DNA of 16,173 nucleotides, from the IMG/VR virus record IMGVR_UViG_640753024_000004, positions 1 to 16,173 of that record; one strand, 5' to 3'. Shown in pieces: positions 1,865 through 14,216 of this stretch. The position numbers and the translations under genes were made by a program. How positions within the stretch are numbered: position 1 is the first letter of the stretch; each line of letters starts with the position of its first letter. The notes under the pieces were generated by a model. It did not search any database. It was given only the letters and a program-made list of their open reading frames with translations, and had not been told where the DNA came from. Source of the DNA: a virus. Taxonomy: Duplodnaviria > Heunggongvirae > Uroviricota > Caudoviricetes.

Positions 1865-2035
1865 ATGAATGAGCCTCGTTGTATTGCTCAGTTATTGCGT
1901 AACGAAAGCCCCAGGGCGATTGACTTCACCATCACCCACGGTAAGGGGCGTAAGGGAATCATTATCCGCACCAAAAAACAGAGTCCGTTAAAAAAGGCTC
2001 TGACCTTTCTGAAAAGCCGGAGGGTCTGGAAATGA
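1865..2035 (+). CDS. Small hypothetical protein at the P2 orf78 position; start uncertain (ATG 1865 after AAGGTGGAAAGG, or ATG 1838, or 1745)
   Basis: ORF in the rightward early operon. Its stop overlaps the next start as ATGA at 2032-2035. Confidence 0.4.
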   Translation: MNEPRCIAQLLRNESPRAIDFTITHGKGRKGIIIRTKKQSPLKKALTFLKSRRVWK

Positions 2036-2532
2036 CAGTGATGACGCTCAATCTCGTCGAAAAACAGCCAGCAGCTATGCGCCGGATAATTGGTAAGCAT
2101 CTTGCCGTCCCTCGCTGGCAGGATACATGTGATTATTATAATCAGATGATGGAGCGCGAACGGCTAACAGTTTGCTTTCATGCGCAGTTAAAACAACGTC
2201 ACGCAACGATGCGTTTTGAAGAAATGAACGACGTCGAACGTGAACGGCTGGTTTGTGCAATTGATGAACTGCGTGGGGCATTCTCAAAACGCCGTCAGGT
2301 TGGCGCAAGTGAGTATGCATATATTAGTTTTTTAACCGTCAGTCAGCGCCGTACTTTATTTATGCACGCACGACTGACAGAAAAAGAATTTAACCAGCCA
2401 TACTGGCGAATTAATGAAGAATCATGTTACTGGCGTGATGCTTTATTCCGTGCATTACGTGAATTATTCAGCCTGTTTGAGTATGCACCGACAATTCTGA
2501 CGTCGGTAAAACCAGAGCAATATCTGCATTAA
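2032..2532 (+). CDS. B: Replication protein B-like, 166 aa
   Basis: Called by synteny (after cox/orf78, before the small ORFs and gene A) and by its 166-aa length, which matches what I recall for P2 B. Sequence identity was not verified. Confidence 0.6.
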   Translation: MTVMTLNLVEKQPAAMRRIIGKHLAVPRWQDTCDYYNQMMERERLTVCFHAQLKQRHATMRFEEMNDVERERLVCAIDELRGAFSKRRQVGASEYAYISFLTVSQRRTLFMHARLTEKEFNQPYWRINEESCYWRDALFRALRELFSLFEYAPTILTSVKPEQYLH

Positions 2533-2595
2533 ATAATTAACCAGAGTTTTTAACGCACTTAATTGTGCGGGGTTTCTTTTTGCCTGGAGAAAGTC

Positions 2596-2820
2596 ATGCA
2601 TACAGTTTCTGAAAATCAGTGCGGTAAATACGCATTACTGCTGCAACAGGCCAGAACCGAAGCACAGGCCGACGCTGCGACGCGCTTTTCTTCTCATCTT
2701 GACGCCATGATTCGCCACATCACAAAGGCGGAGTTATCCCGCGTGGAGATAGTCGAGCTGCTCAGTCAGGAGTCGGAAAAATTTCACAATATCGGATTGT
2801 CTCGCGGGGAGGTGCTTTGA
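2596..2820 (+). CDS. Hypothetical early protein (P2 orf80 position), 74 aa from ATG 2596
   Basis: GGAGAAA lies upstream of ATG 2596; the track start at 2563 is a TTG. A short stem (CGCAC/GTGCG) with a T-rich tail sits just upstream at about 2553-2581. Confidence 0.5.
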
Positions 2821-3122
2821 TGTCCTGTTCTCGTTCAGTTGTATTACTGAATAACGCCTTAAAAATCACCGTTATGAAAAATGGCGATTTATCTCTTATT
2901 CAACTTGGTCTTGATAAAGAAAAACGCGAAATAACTGAGTCTGTTATCGCGATTTATCAGAACGAATTAAATCTCCTGTCTGATGTGGTCAATTTACTTG
3001 TTAAACGCGCTGTATTTCACAAGCAAATCTCCTCCGTGGATGAACTGACGAAATTAACGACAGAAATTGCCAGCTATTGCGCTGATGAATTTAAAAAACT
3101 TAACGACAAAAGGAGCTGGTAA
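2820..3122 (+). CDS. Hypothetical early protein (P2 orf81 position)
   Basis: ATG overlaps the previous stop (TGATG), suggesting translational coupling. An alternative start is ATG 2874 (MKNGDL...). Confidence 0.5.
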   Translation: MSCSRSVVLLNNALKITVMKNGDLSLIQLGLDKEKREITESVIAIYQNELNLLSDVVNLLVKRAVFHKQISSVDELTKLTTEIASYCADEFKKLNDKRSW

Positions 3123-3346
3123 TGCCGGACAACGTAGATTTTATTCAGGAACAACAGGCTGAATTACTGGAGCGTCAGATTAACGCGGCAAGGGTAAAAC
3201 ATTGCGGTGCTTCTGCGCTGGTTTGCGAAGAGTGTGACGCGCCAATACCTGCTGCCCGTCGTGCGGCTTATCCGTCAGCCACGCGTTGTGTTTCCTGCCA
3301 GTCAGTCTTTGAAGCAAAAAACAAACATTACCGGAGAACGGCATGA
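3122..3346 (+). CDS. TraR/DksA-family C4 zinc-finger protein (P2 orf82 position), 74 aa
   Basis: Two Cys pairs (C..C.EEC and C.SC). AGGAG is upstream and the start overlaps the previous stop as TAATG. Confidence 0.7.
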   Translation: MPDNVDFIQEQQAELLERQINAARVKHCGASALVCEECDAPIPAARRAAYPSATRCVSCQSVFEAKNKHYRRTA

Positions 3347-3618
3347 GTATTCGTATTGAAATTGGCGAACGTTATGTCGTTACCAGTGACAGCTTTCAGT
3401 TTATTCTCCACGAGAAAAAGAGAGCGGAAAGCGGTAAAAACGCCGGTCAGGAATGGCTGGCGGTGGTTGGTTATTATCCGAAATTAAGCCAGCTCGTTTC
3501 CGGCCTGATGCATCACGATATTCTGACCGGAAGCGCAAAGTCTTTTGCTGATTTAAACGCGCAGGTTGAGCAACTCAGCAGGCGTTGTTCAGAGGCTTTT
3601 GGCTCATATGGCCGTTAA
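3343..3618 (+). CDS. Hypothetical early protein (P2 orf83 position), 91 aa
   Basis: Start overlaps the previous stop (ATGA). Its stop overlaps the start of gene A. Confidence 0.55.
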   Translation: MSIRIEIGERYVVTSDSFQFILHEKKRAESGKNAGQEWLAVVGYYPKLSQLVSGLMHHDILTGSAKSFADLNAQVEQLSRRCSEAFGSYGR

Positions 3619-5884
3619 AGCCTCCGGGCGTTTTGTCCCTCCGTCAGCATTTGCCGCAGGCACCGGTAAGGCGTTTACCGGTGCTTATGCATGGAACGCG
3701 CCACGCGAGGCTGTCGGGCGCGAAAGACCCCTTACACGTGACGAGATGCGTCAGGTGCAAGGGGTTTTATCCACGATTAACCGTCTGCCTTACTTTTTGC
3801 GCTCGCTGTTTACTTCACGCTATGACTACATCCGGCGCAATAAAAGCCCGGTGCACGGGTTTTATTTTCTCACATCCACTTTTCAGCGTCGTTTATGGCC
3901 GCGCATTGAGCGTGTGAATCAGCGCCATGAAATGAACACCGACGCGTCGTTGCTGTTTCTGGCAGAGCGTGACCACTATGCGCGCCTGCCGGGAATGAAT
4001 GACAAGGAGCTGAAAAAGTTTGCCGCCCGTATCTCATCGCAGCTTTTCATGATGTATGAGGAACTCAGCGATGCCTGGGTGGATGCGCATGGCGAAAAAG
4101 AATCGCTGTTTACGGATGAGGCGCAGGCTCACCTCTATGGTCATGTTGCTGGCGCTGCACGTGCTTTCAATATTTCCCCGCTCTACTGGAAAAAATACCG
4201 TAAAGGACAGATGACCACGAGGCAGGCATATTCTGCCATTGCCCGTCTGTTTAACGATGAGTGGTGGACTCATCAGCTCAAAGGCCAGCGTATGCGCTGG
4301 CATGAGGCGTTACTGATTGCTGTCGGGGAGGTGAATAAAGACCGTTCTCCTTATGCCAGTAAACATGCCATTCGTGATGTACGTGCACGCCGCCAGGCAA
4401 ATCTGGAATTTCTTAAATCGTGTGACCTTGAAAACAGGGAAACCGGCGAGCGCATCGACCTTATCAGTAAGGTGATGGGCAGTATTTCTAATCCTGAAAT
4501 TCGCCGGATGGAGCTGATGAACACCATTGCCGGCATTGAGCGTTACGCCGCCGCAGAGGGTGATGTGGGGATGTTTATCACGCTGACCGCGCCGTCAAAG
4601 TATCACCCGACACGTCAGGTCGGAAAAGGCGAAAGTAAAACCGTCCAGCTAAATCACGGCTGGAACGATGAGGCATTTAATCCAAAGGATGCGCAGCGTT
4701 ATCTCTGCCATATCTGGAGCCTGATGCGCACGGCATTCAAGGATAATGATTTACAGGTCTACGGTTTGCGTGTCGTCGAGCCACACCACGACGGAACGCC
4801 GCACTGGCATATGATGCTTTTTTGTAATCCACGCCAGCGTAACCAGATTATTGAAATCATGCGTCGCTACGCGCTCAAAGAGGATGGAGACGAAAGAGGA
4901 GCCGCGCGAAACCGTTTTCAGGCAAAACATCTTAACCGGGGCGGTGCTGCGGGGTATATCGCGAAATACATCTCAAAAAACATCGATGGCTATGCACTGG
5001 ATGGTCAGCTCGATAACGATACCGGCAGGCCACTGAAAGATACTGCTGCGGCTGTTACCGCATGGGCGTCAACGTGGCGCATTCCGCAATTTAAAACGGT
5101 TGGCCTGCCGACAATGGGGGCTTACCGTGAACTACGCAAATTGCCTCGCGGCGTCAGCATTGCTGATGAATTTGACGAACGCGTCGAGGCTGCACGCGCC
5201 GCCGCAGACAGTGGTGATTTTGCGTTGTATATCAGCGCGCAGGGCGGGGCAAATGTCCCGCGCGATTGTCAGACTGTCAGGGTCGCCCGTAGCCCGTCGG
5301 ATGACGTTAACGAGTACGAGGAAGAAGTCGAGAGAGTGGTCGGCATTTACGCGCCGCATCTCGGCGCGCGTCATATTCATATCACCAGAACGACGGACTG
5401 GCGCATTGTGCCGAAAGTTCCGGTCGTTGAGCCTTTGACTTTAAAAAGCGGCATCGCCGCGCCTCGGAGTCCTGTCAATAACTGTGGAAAGCTCACCGGT
5501 GGTGATACTTCGTTACCGGCTCCCACACCTTCTGAACACGCCGCAGCAGTGCTTAATCTGGTTGATGACGGTGTTATCGAATGGAACGACACGGAGGTCG
5601 TGAGGGCGCTCAGGGGGGCATTAAAACACGACCTGAGAACACCAAATCGTCAGCAAAGAAACGGAAGCCCGTTAAAACCACATGAAATTGCACCATCGGC
5701 CAGACTGACCCGGTCGGAAAGAATGCAAATTACCCGTATCCGCGTTGACCTTGCTCAGAACGGTATCAGGCCGCAGCGATGGGAGCTTGAGGCGCTGGCG
5801 CGTGGCGCGACCGTAAATTATTACGGGAAATCTTTCAATTATCAGGTCGCTGATGAGTGGCCTGGATTTTTGTTACCCATTTGA
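3608..5884 (+). CDS. A: Rolling-circle replication initiator endonuclease gpA (HUH family), about 758 aa
   Basis: Contains the HUH-type active-site tyrosine motif GYIAKYISKNIDG. The whole protein matches my recollection of P2 gpA. ATG 3608 (MAVKASGRF...) is preferred over the in-frame TTG at 3566. Confidence 0.9.
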   Translation: MAVKASGRFVPPSAFAAGTGKAFTGAYAWNAPREAVGRERPLTRDEMRQVQGVLSTINRLPYFLRSLFTSRYDYIRRNKSPVHGFYFLTSTFQRRLWPRIERVNQRHEMNTDASLLFLAERDHYARLPGMNDKELKKFAARISSQLFMMYEELSDAWVDAHGEKESLFTDEAQAHLYGHVAGAARAFNISPLYWKKYRKGQMTTRQAYSAIARLFNDEWWTHQLKGQRMRWHEALLIAVGEVNKDRSPYASKHAIRDVRARRQANLEFLKSCDLENRETGERIDLISKVMGSISNPEIRRMELMNTIAGIERYAAAEGDVGMFITLTAPSKYHPTRQVGKGESKTVQLNHGWNDEAFNPKDAQRYLCHIWSLMRTAFKDNDLQVYGLRVVEPHHDGTPHWHMMLFCNPRQRNQIIEIMRRYALKEDGDERGAARNRFQAKHLNRGGAAGYIAKYISKNIDGYALDGQLDNDTGRPLKDTAAAVTAWASTWRIPQFKTVGLPTMGAYRELRKLPRGVSIADEFDERVEAARAAADSGDFALYISAQGGANVPRDCQTVRVARSPSDDVNEYEEEVERVVGIYAPHLGARHIHITRTTDWRIVPKVPVVEPLTLKSGIAAPRSPVNNCGKLTGGDTSLPAPTPSEHAAAVLNLVDDGVIEWNDTEVVRALRGALKHDLRTPNRQQRNGSPLKPHEIAPSARLTRSERMQITRIRVDLAQNGIRPQRWELEALARGATVNYYGKSFNYQVADEWPGFLLPI

Positions 5885-6150
5885 GTAAAAATGCAGCGTG
5901 ATTTTATATGCCTTTGAATGGATTATGCGAAGCGCCTCTAAGGCAGATGAGGAGCAATAGCATGCTGAAGTAGAAGGCTAAATTGTATTGAATCGCTAGC
6001 ATGTAATTTAAGGCAGCTATTTGATTCGAGTCATAAAAGAGCATCTATTTCGGCTAATAAAACCATTGCGAGTGACCTTTTGTCGAAGCATAATTCATCT
6101 CGAGCGAAGTCTTGCTAGTCTTTCATCGGAATGATGACAGGCGCAAAAAA

Positions 6151-6174
6151 ACCACCCTGGCAGGTGGTTTTTTT
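6151..6174. terminator. Bidirectional rho-independent terminator (ACCACC-CTGGC-AGGTGGT hairpin with an A-run before and a T-run after)
   Basis: Seen directly: aaaaaaACCACCctggcaGGTGGTttttttt. It lies downstream of gene A on the plus strand and downstream of the 37-aa ORF on the minus strand. Confidence 0.5.
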
Positions 6175-6186
6175 GTTTGAAGCATA

Positions 6187-6300
6187 TTAAAGAATAATAC
6201 TTACATGGATATTACTGACGTTTACTGACAAACCACTTGGACTACCATATGGATAGCCAAAGAGGGCCAGAACGAGAATGCAGTAATAGCACTTCTTCAT
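6187..6300 (-). CDS. Candidate 37-aa peptide MKKCYYCILVLALFGYPYGSPSGLSVNVSNIHVSIIL
   Basis: ATG preceded by AGGAGGAGAT on the minus strand. The stop sits 13 nt from the terminator hairpin. The N-terminus is hydrophobic. The ORF is not in the supplied track because it is too short. Confidence 0.35.
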   Translation of the reverse strand: MKKCYYCILVLALFGYPYGSPSGLSVNVSNIHVSIIL

Positions 6301-6872
6301 ATCTCCTCCTGTAAGCAGAGGGCAATTTCCGCCGATATATGCGCTTCTGAGGCGGAGTTACTATTTAGCGAAGTCTTGCCCTGAAATAATGCTCTGTTTA
6401 AACGCAAAGTGATCTGGCATATCACCGAACAGAGAGCCTGAACAACACAACATATAGTATGTCGTTGTTTCTGGTTGCATTTTATGTTGTGTAATACTGG
6501 TTTTGCATCAAGGATGTTTGAGCTTTTTTTGATATAGCTCAAAGTAAAAAGCAGGGACTACGGATGATAAGGTATTGAAAGCAATGTAAATTTTTTAAAG
6601 TTATTGGTGGCTAAAAAATGCACGGTTTCAATATGGCGGACTTAAATAAGCAATTAAAAAAGTCATAAATATCACTAAAATCATGGTGTTACGTTTTTTT
6701 TGTGGGAGCTGCGGTGACGCTTAAGTTGATTTGTCATTAAATAAGCCGTGCATGCAACAAGTGAATGTTTTTGCATGCGTCGGGGATGCCCGTTCCAGCT
6801 GCTCGCGGTCAGAGCTGGTGCGGATCCATAGTATCTATGCAACTGCATTAAAACCGCCACATGAAGCGGGCG

Positions 6873-6891
6873 GGCGAGGCGGGGAAAGCAC
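6873..6891. other. cos site: exact match to the P2/P4 19-nt cohesive-end sequence GGCGAGGCGGGGAAAGCAC
   Basis: The 19-mer is seen directly. Identity to the P2 cos sequence is from memory. The position (after the gene A region, before the portal gene) matches the P2 prophage map. Confidence 0.7.
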
Positions 6892-6934
6892 CGCGCGTAA
6901 GATAAACAGAAGAGCGAAGGATTATGGTTGAGTA

Positions 6935-6997
6935 TTTGTGTTTTTGTACATATGATAAAAAGGTGTTTACGCTTAAAAACACATCAAAGGAGATGAT
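6935..6997 (+). promoter_or_regulatory. AT-rich putative promoter and RBS (AGGAG about 6 nt before the ATG) of the ATPase cassette
   Basis: Contains TTGTGT/TTGTAC and TATGAT-like hexamers and an SD sequence. Exact -35/-10 assignment is unresolved. Confidence 0.3.
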
Positions 6998-8299
6998 ATG
7001 GAAAATATAAAGATTGATAAGTTTCTCACTATTCAAAAAGTTGATATTCCTCTTAAGAAAGTGAATATATTTATTGGGCCTCAGGCACAGGGGAAAAGTG
7101 TCATTGCAAAGCTAATAAAATATTTTAAAGATTATCCTATGGATATACTACGAGCTTCAACAGAGGGTAAAACTAAAAGAGATATATTGAAGGAGCAAAA
7201 GAATAAGTTTAGTAAAATTTTCCCTCAGCAGTATTGGGCTGATGATGAGTTTTTTATTGAGTATAGTAATAAGCACTATTGGGTGCGGATTACTAATCGA
7301 AAAAATAGCAAAGGGTCATTGAAAATAGACCTTTCTGAGAATTTAACGAAGACGATTGCTAAACTTCGTTTGATTGTACGAAAGGATTTAGATGAAAATA
7401 TTGAGAATTCACTTGCAGAAAGCGTTACGAGAAGACGTAAACGCGGAATTGAACATGAATTGCGAGTATGTCTTTCTCTAGGATTGTTTTCAGAACCAGA
7501 AACAAAGCTTGAAAGTGTTTTTTATATCCCCGCAGGGCGCTCTTTTTTTGCTAATTTGCAAAAAAATGTGTTTTCATTTTTATCCAGTAGTATAGAAATT
7601 GACTACTTTTTGACAGAGTTTGGTTCTCTGTATGAACAAACAAAAAAATTATTTAACCAAGATTACATGATTAGGATGCTTAGGGGGGCTGTGCCTCAAC
7701 ATGTTAATAAACTTGTGGAGGAGTTGATTTGCGGAAAATATATAACAGAAAAGGGTGAGGATTTTATTCGTCATGCTGCTAAGAAGACGAATCTTAACAA
7801 CTCGAGCTCAGGGCAGCAAGAAGCGTTACCAATGGCTTTAATGTTATCCTCATGGCCGTATTTACAGTCTGTGACTAGTAAGAGTTTTATTATTGAGGAG
7901 CCGGAGGCTCATCTGTTTCCTTCTGCCCAAGCAAAAGTTGTATCTTTAATAGCCTCAGCGTATAACCAAGCAGAAAGCTATTGTAGCTATACAATAACAA
8001 CACATAGTCCATATATTCTAAGTGCCTTCAATAATTTGATTCAAGCAGGTAATGCATTAAAGTGTATTAAGGGCAAGAATAATACCGATATCGAACGCTT
8101 ATATAAGCTTGTTCCAGAGTCTCAAATTATTGATTTTGATGATGTGACAGCTTATATGGTTAATGCTGGGAAAGTGACGGAAATACTGGATTCCGAACTA
8201 AATATATTAGATGCGAATGAAATAGATAGGATTTCCTCTATTTTTTCAGAGACTTTTGATGCATTGATTGATATCGAATATTCGGCTACTGTGAATTAG
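6998..8299 (+). CDS. ABC-type ATPase of the OLD/AAA_21-like class, 433 aa; cargo gene
   Basis: Walker A GPQAQGKS, ABC-signature-like SSGQQ, Walker B/D-loop FIIEEPEAHLFP, H-loop TTHSP. AT-rich codon usage unlike the prophage backbone. No C-terminal TOPRIM or nuclease domain is apparent. Confidence 0.85.
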   Translation: MENIKIDKFLTIQKVDIPLKKVNIFIGPQAQGKSVIAKLIKYFKDYPMDILRASTEGKTKRDILKEQKNKFSKIFPQQYWADDEFFIEYSNKHYWVRITNRKNSKGSLKIDLSENLTKTIAKLRLIVRKDLDENIENSLAESVTRRRKRGIEHELRVCLSLGLFSEPETKLESVFYIPAGRSFFANLQKNVFSFLSSSIEIDYFLTEFGSLYEQTKKLFNQDYMIRMLRGAVPQHVNKLVEELICGKYITEKGEDFIRHAAKKTNLNNSSSGQQEALPMALMLSSWPYLQSVTSKSFIIEEPEAHLFPSAQAKVVSLIASAYNQAESYCSYTITTHSPYILSAFNNLIQAGNALKCIKGKNNTDIERLYKLVPESQIIDFDDVTAYMVNAGKVTEILDSELNILDANEIDRISSIFSETFDALIDIEYSATVN

Positions 8300-8307
8300 G
8301 TGATTGA

Positions 8308-8745
8308 ATGTGTAAAAATTGCAAAGGAAAAACAAAAAATAAAATCATTGTGCTATCTGATAAAGGAACGTCAACGCAATTGTCAGTCACAAATGATAAT
8401 GAGTTGGAAGTTGAGCATAAGTTAATAGATGGTTGCGCTATTGTTGTTGGAGAGCGGTGTGATCATTATTTGAAGATTTATAACAATCAGGATGTTTCAC
8501 ATCTTTTTGTTGAACTTAAAGGAAGTGATGTTGAAAAAGCTGTTAAACAGATAGTGACAACTTTAAAGTCAGGTGTGATTAATGTAGGTGCTAAAGAAAA
8601 AAAACATGGTGCTATTGTTAGCACTAGGAATCCGCTAAACTCAACAGAAACCAATAGGTTAAAGAAGAAAATTCTTTTGAGTGACGGAGTGAATTTGCAT
8701 TTCTATAAAATGAAGGCGCAGCAAAAAATAACTTCTTTTACATGA
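8308..8745 (+). CDS. Small Cys-rich partner protein, 145 aa, of unknown function; possible nuclease-like effector
   Basis: Starts 9 nt after the ATPase stop with AGGTGA upstream, so it is an operon partner. Has CxxC (C2,C5) plus C43/C51, and a D52...E69-L-K71 arrangement that could be a PD-(D/E)xK-like core; the latter is speculative. Confidence 0.7.
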   Translation: MCKNCKGKTKNKIIVLSDKGTSTQLSVTNDNELEVEHKLIDGCAIVVGERCDHYLKIYNNQDVSHLFVELKGSDVEKAVKQIVTTLKSGVINVGAKEKKHGAIVSTRNPLNSTETNRLKKKILLSDGVNLHFYKMKAQQKITSFT

Positions 8746-8758
8746 AGTGTTCTCTTGT

Positions 8759-8782
8759 ACAGGCATGCATTTGCATGCCTGT
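8759..8782. terminator. Near-perfect palindrome ACAGGCATGCA-TT-TGCATGCCTGT after the cassette; possible terminator or protein-binding site
   Basis: 11-bp stem seen directly. The T-tail is weak (cttttac). Confidence 0.35.
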
Positions 8783-8848
8783 CGTGTAATCTTTTACACT
8801 ATATTTGTGTTGGTTCTAATCTTGTTATGTGTTTGTTTCGGTGATGGG

Positions 8849-9391
8849 TCATAATGAATAAGTTCGAAAGCGAAATACATCTTCGCCAACCCAACAGTTA
8901 ATTTCTTTACATCGCTCTTGGAGGAACGTTAGCTCGTTGCGTACAAAGACTTGTGCTGCTTTTGTTACATCTCCAAATCCTCCTGTGTTGTTGGGCATCA
9001 TTCCTATCATTTGGGGAGGCACGCGATGAGCACTCATTAGATCTTCAGCACTTGCTTTTTTGATATTAAAAAAATCGTCCTTCGTTGCCACTTCACTGAG
9101 CGGGATAATTTTAATGCCGTCGGCTTTCCCCTGTGGGGCATAGAGAAACAGATTTTTAAAGTTATTACGGCCTTTCGACTTAACCATGTTTTCGCGAAGC
9201 ATTTCGATATCGTTGCGATCCTGCACGGCATCGGTGACGTACATGATGTATCCGGCATGAGCGCCGTTTTCGTAATACTTGCGGCGGAACAGCGTGGCCG
9301 ACTCATTCAGCCAGGCAGAGTTAAGGGCGCTGAGATATTCCGGCAGGCCGTACAGCTCCTGATTAATATCCGGCTCCAGCAGGTGAAACAC
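8849..9391 (-). pseudogene. Q: Portal protein gene Q, 3' portion only (about 180 codons, C-terminal half)
   Basis: The translation matches what I recall of the C-terminal half of the P2 portal protein (P2 Q is about 344 aa). The reading frame has no plausible N-terminus and runs into the E/E' remnant. Confidence 0.75.
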
Positions 9392-9394
9392 GGA

Positions 9395-9647
9395 GCCGGG
9401 TGACCGAGCAGGAAGTCGCCGCGCTGGAACTGCCTGACCTTGTGGCGCTGGCCGGTAAGGTGGTCGGTTTTTTGTCGCCGAACTCGGTGCAGTGACGTTT
9501 CCGAAAAATCTCTCGGTCGATGACCTGATGGCGGATGTGGCAGTGATATTTCACTGGCCGCCATCAGAACTGTATCCCATGAGCCTGACCGAACTCATCA
9601 CATGGCGCGAAAAGGCGCTCCGGCGAAGCGGAAACACGAATGAGTAA
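9395..9647 (+). pseudogene. E: 3' remnant of tail chaperone genes E and E' (E frame to the stop at 9493-9495; E' extension frame to the stop at 9645-9647, overlapping the T start)
   Basis: Two overlapping frames: ...TEQEVAALELPDLVALAGKVVGFLSPNSVQ* and ...FFVAELGAVTFPKNLSVDDLMADVAVIFHWPPSELYPMSLTELITWREKALRRSGNTNE*, joined at a T6G slippery site. No start codon or 5' part is present. Confidence 0.6.
9468..9474 (+). other. Programmed -1 frameshift slippery sequence TTTTTTG of the E/E' pair
   Basis: T6G is seen where the E frame (GGT TTT TTG) and E' frame (TTT TTT GTC) overlap. A frameshift of this kind is established for the P2 E/E' tail chaperone pair. Confidence 0.5.
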
Positions 9648-10697
9648 CAATGTAAAATTACAGGTATTGCTCAGGGCTGTTGACCAGGCATCACGCCCGT
9701 TTAAATCCATCCGTACAGCGAGCAAATCGCTGTCGGGGGATATCCGGGAAACACAAAAATCACTGCGCGAGCTGAACGGTCAGACATCCCGTATTGAGGG
9801 ATTTCGCAAGACCAGTGCACAGCTCGCCGTGACTGGTCATGCACTTGAAAAGGCTCGGCAGGAAGCAGAAGCCCTTGCCACACAGTTTAAAAACACCGAA
9901 CGTCCGACCCGTGCTCAGGCGAAAGTGCTGGAATCAGCAAAGCGAGCGGCGGAGGACTTACAGGCGAAATATAACCGCCTGACGGATTCCGTTAAACGCC
10001 AGCAGCGGGAACTGGCCGCTGTGGGAATTAATACCCGCAATCTTGCACATGATGAGCAGGGACTGAAAAACCGTATCAGTGAAACCACCGCACAGCTTAA
10101 CCGGCAGCGCGACGCGCTGGCGCGTGTCAGTGCGCAACAGGCAAAACTTAACGCAGTCAAACAGCGTTATCAGGCCGGAAAGGAACTGGCCGGAAATATG
10201 GCCTCAGTAGGCGCTGCCGGTGTGGGGATTGCGGCGGCGGGAACGATGACCGGAGTTAAGTTGCTGATGCCCGGTTATGAGTTTGCGCAGAAAAACTCAG
10301 AATTGCAGGCCGTGCTCGGAGTGGCAAAAGACTCCGCCGAAATGACCGCACTACGCAAACAGGCGCGCCAGCTCGGCGACAATACCGCCGCCTCGGCGGA
10401 TGATGCGGCCGGTGCACAGATAATCATCGCGAAAGCGGGTGGAGATGCTGCGGCTATTCAGGCGGCAACGCCGGTCACGCTGAATATGGCACTGGCGAAT
10501 CAGCGGTCGATGGAAGAAAACGCGCAACTGTTGCTGGGGACTAAGGCATCCTTTCAACTGTCAAATGATGATGTCAGCCATGTGGGCGACGTGTTGTCGG
10601 CAACGATGAATAAGTCGGCGGCTGATTTTCAGGGGCTCAGTGATGCACTGACTTACCTCGGGCCGGTTGCGAGGACGGCGGGTGTAAGTCTTGAGCA
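9640..10697 (+). pseudogene. T: Tail tape-measure gene T, 5' part, interrupted by an IS21-family insertion
   Basis: Coiled-coil-like, Ala/Gln-rich N-terminal tape-measure sequence. The frame runs into the IS left end and stops at 10723-10725 inside the IS inverted repeat. Confidence 0.8.
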
Positions 10698-10750
10698 TGT
10701 CAGCGCCAATGATATAAGACAGTAATTCACCATTTGGATTGTCCGCTCCA
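10698..10750. repeat. IS21-family left terminal inverted repeat region
   Basis: Matches the right end in inverted orientation: terminal TGTCA(G/A)CGCCAA, then CCATTTGGATTGTCCGCT against CCATTTTTAATGTCCGCT. Confidence 0.6.
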
Positions 10751-10798: not shown

Positions 10799-12765
<1,967 letters not shown>

Positions 12766-12822: not shown

Positions 12823-14216
12823 AGCAGGCAGCGGCCATGACAGGTGTGCTGCATGACAATAACATCAGGGGGTCAATGGCGGGTACTGGTAGTAGTGCCG
12901 TTGTCACCCGATTACAGGCTCCGACAGGGAAAGCATGGGAAGCACTCAAAGAGCTTGGCGTTAAAACCTCGGACAAAAAGGGAAATATGCGTCCGTTGTT
13001 CACCATTCTGAAAGAGATTCAGGCCAGCTTTGATAAACACAAGCTGGGAACGTCTCAGAAGGGGGAATACCTTAAAACCATTTTTGGTGAGGAAGCCCTG
13101 AAATCAGCGAACGTTTTACTGGCAGCGGCTGCAAGCGGAAAACTGGATAAGCTGACCGCCACGCTGAAAGCCTCGGACGGTAAAACGGAAGAGCTGGTTA
13201 AAATCATGCAGGATAACCTCGGCGGTGACTTTAAGGAGTTTCAGTCTGCTTATGAGGCGGTGGGGACTGACCTGTTTGACCAACAGGAAGGCGCACTGCG
13301 TAATCTCACGCAGACGGCCACAAAGTATGTGTTAAAACTCGACGGCTGGATCCAGAAAAACAAATCACTGGCGTCAACCATCGGCCTTATTGTCGGTGGC
13401 GCACTGGCGCTTATTGGCATCATCGGTGCAATTGGTCTTGTAGCCTGGCCGGTTATCACCGGCATTAATGCCATCATCGCGGCAGCAGGCGCAATGGGGG
13501 CAATCTTCACGACGGTTGGCAGTGCTGTTATGACGGCCATCGGGGCGATTAGCTGGCCGATTGTGGCTGTGGTGGCCGCCATTGTCGCCGGGGCGTTGCT
13601 TATCCGTAAATACTGGGAGCCTGTCAGCGCATTCTTTGGTGGTGTGGTTGAAGGGCTGAAAGCAGCATTTGCGCCGGTGGGGGAGCTGTTCTCGCCACTG
13701 AAACCGGTGTTTGACTGGCTGGGCGAAAAGTTACAGGCCGCGTGGCAGTGGTTTAAAAACCTGATTGCCCCGGTCAAAGCCACCCAGGACACCCTGAACC
13801 GTTGCCGTGATACTGGCGTCATGTTCGGGCAGGCACTGGCTGACGCGCTGATGCTGCCGCTTAATGCGTTCAACAAACTGCGCAGCGGTATTGACTGGGT
13901 ACTGGAAAAACTCGGCGTCATCAACAAAGAGTCTGACGCACTTGACCAGACTGCCGCCAGAACTCATGCCGCCACGTATGGCACAGGTGGTTATATTCCG
14001 GCGACCAGCTCTTATGCAGGCTATCAGGCTTACCAGCCGGTCACGGCACCGGCTGGTCGCTCTTATGTGGACCAGAGTAAAAACGAATATCACATCAACC
14101 TGACGGGCGGTACTGCGCCGGGGACACAGCTTGACCGCCAGTTACAGGATGTGCTCGAAAAATACGAGCGGGATAAACGTGCGCGCGCCCGTGCCAGCAT
14201 GATGCATGACGGTTAA
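12823..14216 (+). pseudogene. T: Tail tape-measure gene T, 3' part
   Basis: Removing the IS and one AGCA copy rejoins the frame as ...GVSLEQAAAMTGVLHDNNIRGSMAGTG..., giving about 816 codons, close to the length I recall for P2 gpT. Contains a hydrophobic Gly/Ala-rich central segment typical of tape-measure proteins. Confidence 0.8.

Follow-up and report, generated by a model that had tools for sequence, protein, structure and literature searches.

The gene at positions 8308..8745 (+ strand) of the window, the 16,173-nucleotide stretch of DNA analysed here, encodes a small protein of 145 amino acids that is predicted to be a minimal PD-(D/E)xK nuclease. We consider it rather likely that this protein, paired with the ABC-type ATPase encoded immediately upstream, makes up a two-gene anti-phage module carried in a hotspot of P2-like prophages.

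The window is a P2-like prophage of E. coli. Domain matches identified an integrase (1-996, – strand) and the gpA replication protein with its GPA domain (3566-5884), and the TIGR01540 model identified a truncated portal gene (gpQ; 8849-9391, – strand). Genome comparison delimited a mobile, low-GC cassette of ~2 kb (6838..8850) that is shared between genomes. The cassette is 99% identical across its span in complete E. coli genomes, its GC content is 0.35 compared to ~0.54 in the flanking phage DNA, and its coding part is present in 9 of 5426 complete E. coli genomes. A single exact match to the 19-nt sequence GGCGAGGCGGGGAAAGCAC was found at 6873..6891 (+ strand), with none in 200 shuffles. 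We take this 19-mer to be the P2/P4 cohesive end (cos), and the right ends of deposited P2-like phage genomes map to ~6721-6840 of the window. If 6873-6891 is indeed cos, the cassette would occupy the far left end of the packaged genome, with cos on one side and gpQ on the other. Strains 2452 and EP91A carry this cassette too, flanked by an intact gpA and the portal gene; the EP91A copy is 100% identical to the window and the strain 2452 version 99% identical. The cassette sits in the gpA-gpQ hotspot of a P2-like prophage, a location shown to be a reservoir of anti-phage systems (Rousset et al. 2022, PMC9122126).

The small gene appears in the list of open reading frames with an ATG start, and its translation carries C2 and C5 in MCKNCKGK, and C43, C51, D52, D62, E69 and K71 in GERCDHYLKIYNNQDVSHLFVELKG, as described in an initial annotation of this DNA. 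The gene is real, far beyond chance. Its Shine-Dalgarno sequence, read as AGGTGA at 8298..8303 (+ strand), is separated from the ATG by 4 nt and shares bases with the ATPase stop codon (8297-8299), indicating tight coupling. On the 3' side of the stop codon is a perfect 10-bp GC-rich hairpin (8759..8782, + strand), which is terminator-like but lacks a clean T-run; its RNA fold has a predicted energy of –24.6 kcal/mol (z = –4.61, with 0 of 200 shuffles equally stable), and it is followed by a second small hairpin at 8784-8799. The hairpin at 8759-8782 was not called by a strict terminator scan, and no Rfam RNA family was found within the window.

The upstream gene (6998..8299, + strand) encodes an ATPase of 433 amino acids, the proposed sensor or regulator of the pair, which was assigned with Pfam and PADLOC models. 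It matches AAA_15 (4.7e-21) and AAA_21 (5.8e-9) in Pfam, with weak matches to SMC_N and RecF, and PDC-M29A (1.9e-31) and AriA (7.3e-26) in PADLOC, and its nearest PADLOC profile matches are all defence ATPases. The Walker A motif (G27-x-Q-x-x-G-K-S34), the signature motif (S270-S-G-Q-Q274), the Walker B motif (E300-E-P-E303) and the H-loop (T334-x-H-S-P-Y339) are invariant in nine orthologues from three phyla. A sigma-70-like promoter candidate, TTGAGT-17-TATGAT (6928..6956, + strand), lies 42 nt upstream of the ATPase start; it has 9 of 12 consensus matches, but such sites are no commoner here than in shuffled sequence, which makes it a weak candidate.

The linkage between the two genes extends well beyond E. 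coli. Each of the 14 independent contexts examined has an AAA_15/AAA_21 ATPase gene directly upstream of the small gene, and this strict adjacency agrees with the earlier suggestion that the small protein is a partner or effector of the ATPase. Related loci were found using an alignment of 16 sequences (six loci), and the ATPase-first pair is present in loci of Kosakonia, two Prevotella, Muribaculaceae, Bacteroidales and Opitutaceae. It was also found in Serratia, Enterobacter, Moorena, a Planctomycetes MAG, a Bacteroidales MAG and two metagenomic contigs, one of which ends within the upstream ATPase gene. The homologous ATPases in the inspected loci have 385-441 amino acids, and their genes are 1-11 nt from the small gene or overlap it. 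Beyond E. coli, most copies of the pair stand by themselves as two-gene islets amid housekeeping genes. At one Prevotella locus (L003), the pair is flanked by a second AAA_15 ATPase gene (2016-3605) and a D12 adenine methyltransferase gene (5874-6755), and because of these neighbours a defence-island context is suggested.

To describe the family to which the small protein belongs, its distribution in the sequence databases may be summarized as follows. Proteins 98% identical to it occur in E. coli, and those of Enterobacter, Kosakonia and Serratia are 61-74% identical. A profile search of 1.84 billion cluster representatives yielded 2311 relatives at E ≤ 1e-3 and 957 at E ≤ 1e-10, nearly all of them stand-alone proteins of 130-150 amino acids. 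The family comprises >2300 clusters at 50% identity, and is spread over Pseudomonadota, Bacteroidota, Cyanobacteriota, Planctomycetota and Verrucomicrobiota. None of the best 120 matches from a second profile search carried a Pfam domain, and nearly all the named ones were 'hypothetical'. Pfam, NCBIfam and PHROGs contain no family for the small protein, and no significant match to the protein or its family profile was found in Pfam, NCBIfam or the PDB; comparison of PDB chains with the query and both family profiles gave only chance matches, to a PPR protein and hnRNP F, due to the string FVELKG. No genuine full-length fusion of ATPase and nuclease was seen among the family representatives. 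One representative of 150 amino acids (P0046), in which a Walker-A-like ATPase start (GSQASGKSVIAKLLYYFK) is joined straight to the small-protein core, looks like either a deletion fusion of the ATPase and small genes or a mis-assembly.

Conservation was counted in an alignment of 280 divergent family members, in addition to smaller alignments. D41, C51, E69 and K71 are present in 280/280 members, D52 and Q81 in 279/280, P109 in 276/280 and N29 in 273/280, and L70, G72 and A78 are also nearly invariant. The initial annotation had proposed a nuclease motif together with a set of four cysteines, and the alignment divides this proposal: D52, E69 and K71 are conserved, while D62 and the four-cysteine set are not. 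The (near-)invariant D41, Q81 and C51 had not been flagged.

The cysteines were previously read as two pairs suggesting a zinc-ribbon-like element, and this reading is not upheld by the alignment. At position 2 of the family F is the commonest residue, C2 is clade-specific, and a CxxC at positions 2 and 5 is found in only 13/280 members; since C2 is not conserved, there is no pair of CxxC knuckles. C5, C43 and C51 occur together in 264/280 members. C43 is missing in 12/280, six of which lack C5 as well, and only four members keep C43 without C5, three of these being truncated or mis-started sequences. Both C5 and C43 are absent from whole clades, namely the Bacteroidota and Opitutaceae homologues, leaving C51 as the only invariant cysteine. 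As C5 and C43 tend to vanish together, they appear to function as a pair, forming a disulfide or contributing to a metal site. To judge from the alignment, this pair is dispensable in the Bacteroidota and Opitutaceae homologues, while C51, beside D52, is universal. The Prevotella homologues (L003, 4935-5867; L004, 4893-5819), which are without C5 and C43, carry an extra acidic C-terminal extension of ~170 amino acids.

An AlphaFold model of the small protein built from 16 sequences had a pLDDT of 83, and an AF2 model built from 107 diverse sequences had a pLDDT of 93.8 and a pTM of 0.89. In the model, four N-terminal strands (6-39) are followed by a loop containing D41, G42, C43 and, further on, C51 and D52. 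The core then consists of a beta-hairpin (53-59 and 62-70), a helix (75-88) bearing Q81, a strand (98-104) and a second helix (113-126), giving a beta-beta-alpha-beta-alpha topology, and two short strands follow at the C-terminus. In canonical PD-(D/E)xK enzymes, an acidic residue heads one strand of the hairpin, ExK is on the partner strand, and a helix and a strand come next. The corresponding residues of the small protein are placed in the same way in the model, with D52 (279/280) just before strand 53-59 and E69-L-K71 (E69 and K71 both 280/280) at the end of the antiparallel strand 62-70. The PD-(D/E)xK-like core, which had been proposed by eye, is thus borne out by the invariance of these residues and by the hairpin geometry of the model with pLDDT 93.8.

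Comparison of the model with known folds gave a similar picture, in that restriction endonucleases dominate the Foldseek ranking with probabilities of up to 0.97. A minority of family members give sub-threshold Pfam matches, and these fall in PD-(D/E)xK families: HSDR_N (7) and SduA_C (5), and further SfsA, DUF2726, NOV_C, NucS_C, CdiA_C and RE_TdeIII. Stray PADLOC matches of family members were to Cas4, HamA, REase_II (type II REase), Vsr and HEC-02B. FokI/BamHI-type catalytic domains share 8-16% sequence identity with the small protein at TM-scores ≤0.43. An hhalign comparison between the family profile and a single FokI cleavage-domain sequence was uninformative (probability 0.2%) and was disregarded. 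The small protein differs from the FokI/BamHI-type enzymes in lacking a recognition domain and in having a four-strand N-terminal extension in place of the first helix, and its family has conserved cysteines and an invariant glutamine in the helix following the motif. Because of the arrangement in the model, the sub-threshold profile matches and the invariant D...ExK...Q set, we consider the nuclease-fold assignment highly probable; at the level of fold class it is moderately well established by modelling. D41, D52, E69, K71 and Q81 are the predicted catalytic residues.

We infer nuclease activity, its substrate, its control by the ATPase and a defence phenotype from the above features, and the mechanism may be pictured as follows. 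The small protein would be a minimal metal-dependent nuclease of the restriction-endonuclease fold, with D52 and E69-x-K71 forming the active site and D41 and Q81 as additional invariant active-site residues. It would be co-translated with the ABC ATPase and controlled by it. On the model of PARIS, Septu, Gabija, OLD and HEC-02, the ATPase would sense infection and license or release the nuclease, which would then cut phage or host nucleic acid. As a recognition domain is lacking in the small protein, it is most economical to suppose that the ATPase targets or licenses it. The logic of PARIS, in which the ATPase senses and the nuclease acts, likely applies to the window pair, if the analogy between the two holds.

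The same lack of a separate DNA-recognition domain would also suit a protein of nuclease fold whose main role is to bind nucleic acid as a sensor or adaptor for the ATPase, or a pair devoted to DNA repair or mobile-element maintenance. ABC ATPases of the clade to which the window ATPase belongs (RecF/RecN/SMC-like) also serve in repair, SMC_N and RecF are among the weak matches of the window ATPase, and many copies of the pair stand alone amid housekeeping genes and not in defence islands. However, the catalytic set (D, ExK and Q) is invariant in 279-280 of 280 members, and chemistry is therefore favoured over mere binding. In addition, the E. coli pair lies in a low-GC island of patchy occurrence (9/5426 genomes) within a validated defence hotspot, and the nearest profile matches of the ATPase are all to defence ATPases. 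Such a role in binding or repair is accordingly unlikely in our estimation.

A toxin-antitoxin-like arrangement, in which the nuclease would be a constitutive toxin and the ATPase its antitoxin or chaperone with no sensing of infection, is less probable again. The tight translational coupling with the ATPase gene first is compatible with such a pair, the Enterobacter copy adjoins HicB and SymE toxin-antitoxin genes, and the Pfam label of AAA_21 is 'putative AbiEii toxin'. On the other hand, loss of either gene is non-toxic in PARIS, the closest studied analogue, for which a toxin-antitoxin system was excluded (PMC9122126), and the ABC ATPase motifs are strictly conserved, which speaks for an ATP-driven function and not for simple neutralisation. 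Similarly improbable is a generic likeness to three-layer alpha/beta-sandwich proteins, with the small protein being a non-nuclease such as a Cys-dependent metal/redox regulatory subunit, as the Foldseek list is led by restriction endonucleases (up to 0.97), the sub-threshold Pfam matches concentrate in PD-(D/E)xK families, C2 varies within the family, the Bacteroidota and Opitutaceae homologues do without C5 and C43, and the small protein contains no P-loop or other GTPase motif.

The pair has been catalogued before. System #81, 'AAA_15/AAA_21', in Table S5B of Rousset et al. 2022 is the exact pair, with 45 occurrences in the gpA-gpQ hotspot (PMC9122126), and its representative sequence is identical to the window small protein. 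The pair given in Table S5, WP_023486639 and WP_040030509, is the 99%-identical version in strain 2452, and the table also contains WP_000335230, which is the small protein in EP91A, with WP_053274948 as its partner. System #81 is absent from Tables S2A/B, which cover the systems that were cloned and tested, and its second protein is 'hypothetical' in Table S5B.

PDC-M29 is a PADLOC candidate (cassette CAS_00123, FAM_00005>>FAM_02872) with 110 RefSeq instances, and is among the 145 'guilt-by-embedding' candidates of Payne et al. 2024 (10.1101/2024.01.29.577857). Like the window pair, it consists of an ABC ATPase gene followed by one for a protein of ~140-160 amino acids. The PDC-M29B model is matched by 97/107 family members (best 2e-13); the match of the window small protein itself is weak (E 1.6e-4, 19.8 bits, PADLOC score thresholds not applied). 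No assigned function was found for PDC-M29B, and a search of the main texts of papers gave nothing on the RefSeq accessions or 'PDC-M29'. The window pair may best be grouped with PDC-M29 as a probable divergent member; it is identical to system #81 of Rousset et al.

Among the characterized systems, HEC-02 comprises an ABC ATPase and a nuclease of the PD-(D/E)xK superfamily (NERD), and its defence activity is reported to have been confirmed experimentally (Payne et al. 2024). It resembles the window pair in combining an ABC ATPase with a separate PD-(D/E)xK-superfamily partner, the latter being predicted in our case. However, the window family has no NERD Pfam match, HEC-02B is matched weakly by 1/107 members, and the window ATPase is closer to HEC-01A and PDC-M29A than to HEC-02A. 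Membership of HEC-02 was rejected as the small protein has no NERD domain. PARIS shares with the window pair an AAA_15 ATPase gene in first position, a two-gene operon and a location in P2/P4 hotspots, and the window does contain the AAA_15/AAA_21 ATPase beside an effector that typifies PARIS (AAA_15 4.7e-21, AriA model 7.3e-26). The PARIS effector AriB, however, is a DUF4435/TOPRIM nuclease, whereas the window small protein is half its size and has a predicted PD-(D/E)xK-like fold. No DUF4435 or Toprim Pfam match was obtained at E ≤ 1 and the fold matches PD-(D/E)xK nucleases, and the pair was therefore not assigned to PARIS. The window ATPase gives weaker matches to the ATPase models of Septu, Gabija, Lamassu and PD-T4-4, and these systems were rejected because the small protein matches none of their partners. 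PARIS, Septu, Gabija, OLD and HEC-02 have been reviewed as one 'ABC ATPase + diverse effector' superfamily (Payne et al.).

The pair is a plausible but fairly ordinary kind of system, already catalogued but functionally unannotated. As ATPase-nuclease pairs are a familiar theme in phage defence, it does not challenge current concepts. If the proposed roles are correct, a function would be provided for a family without a Pfam or NCBIfam model, which goes by the name 'hypothetical' in almost every source, and a catalogue entry (PDC-M29, Rousset #81) would become a defined ATPase-plus-nuclease defence module. At ~140 residues, near the minimal size for the fold, the protein would also be a convenient model for the licensing of nucleases by ABC ATPases. 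A more far-reaching proposal, which we put forward only tentatively and regard as doubtful, is that the family represents an unrecognised branch of stand-alone PD-(D/E)xK nucleases of ~140 amino acids with obligate ABC ATPase pairing, making up a new anti-phage system in which C5/C43, C51 and D52 would form a metal or redox switch gating the active site.

The window prophage itself shows signs of decay. Only the C-terminal ~180 amino acids of the portal remain at 8849-9391, corresponding to positions 136-314 of 320 in the TIGR01540 profile, and from ~9401 the sequence passes into the tail-chaperone region of P2 (gpE/E'), where a T-run slippery site lies near 9470. The portal truncation and the switch at ~9401 therefore indicate that the terminase, capsid, lysis and most tail genes have been deleted and that the prophage is defective, whereas strains 2452 and EP91A have intact copies. 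The tape-measure gene is split by an IS21-family element, positions 1-119 of the PhageMin_Tail profile being located in the ORF 9640-10725 and positions 121-201 in the ORF 12837-14216, and gpU and gpD then follow. The element encodes istA (10799-11971), with rve and Mu-transposase C-terminal domains, and istB (11968-12765; IstB_IS21, 1e-87); its ends within the window were not delimited by a repeat search.

Between gpA and the cassette lies an unannotated segment of ~950 bp (5885-6840). The first ~715 bp correspond, at 93-94% identity, to the region that follows gene A in phage P2, and the final ~120 bp to the right ends of P2-like phage genomes. Parts of 5885-8850, that is, this segment and/or the portal end, are present in 2116/5426 E. 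coli genomes, and no feature is annotated beneath the matches to the segment. The segment contains an ORF for a hydrophobic peptide of 37 amino acids (6187-6300, – strand; MKKCYYCILVLALFGYPYGSPSGLSVNVSNIHVSIIL), which is unannotated in the matching genomes. This ORF has a strong AGGAGG ribosome-binding site and is followed by a bidirectional terminator-like hairpin (~6148-6175), and could be a gene for a small membrane peptide or a type I toxin-like gene.
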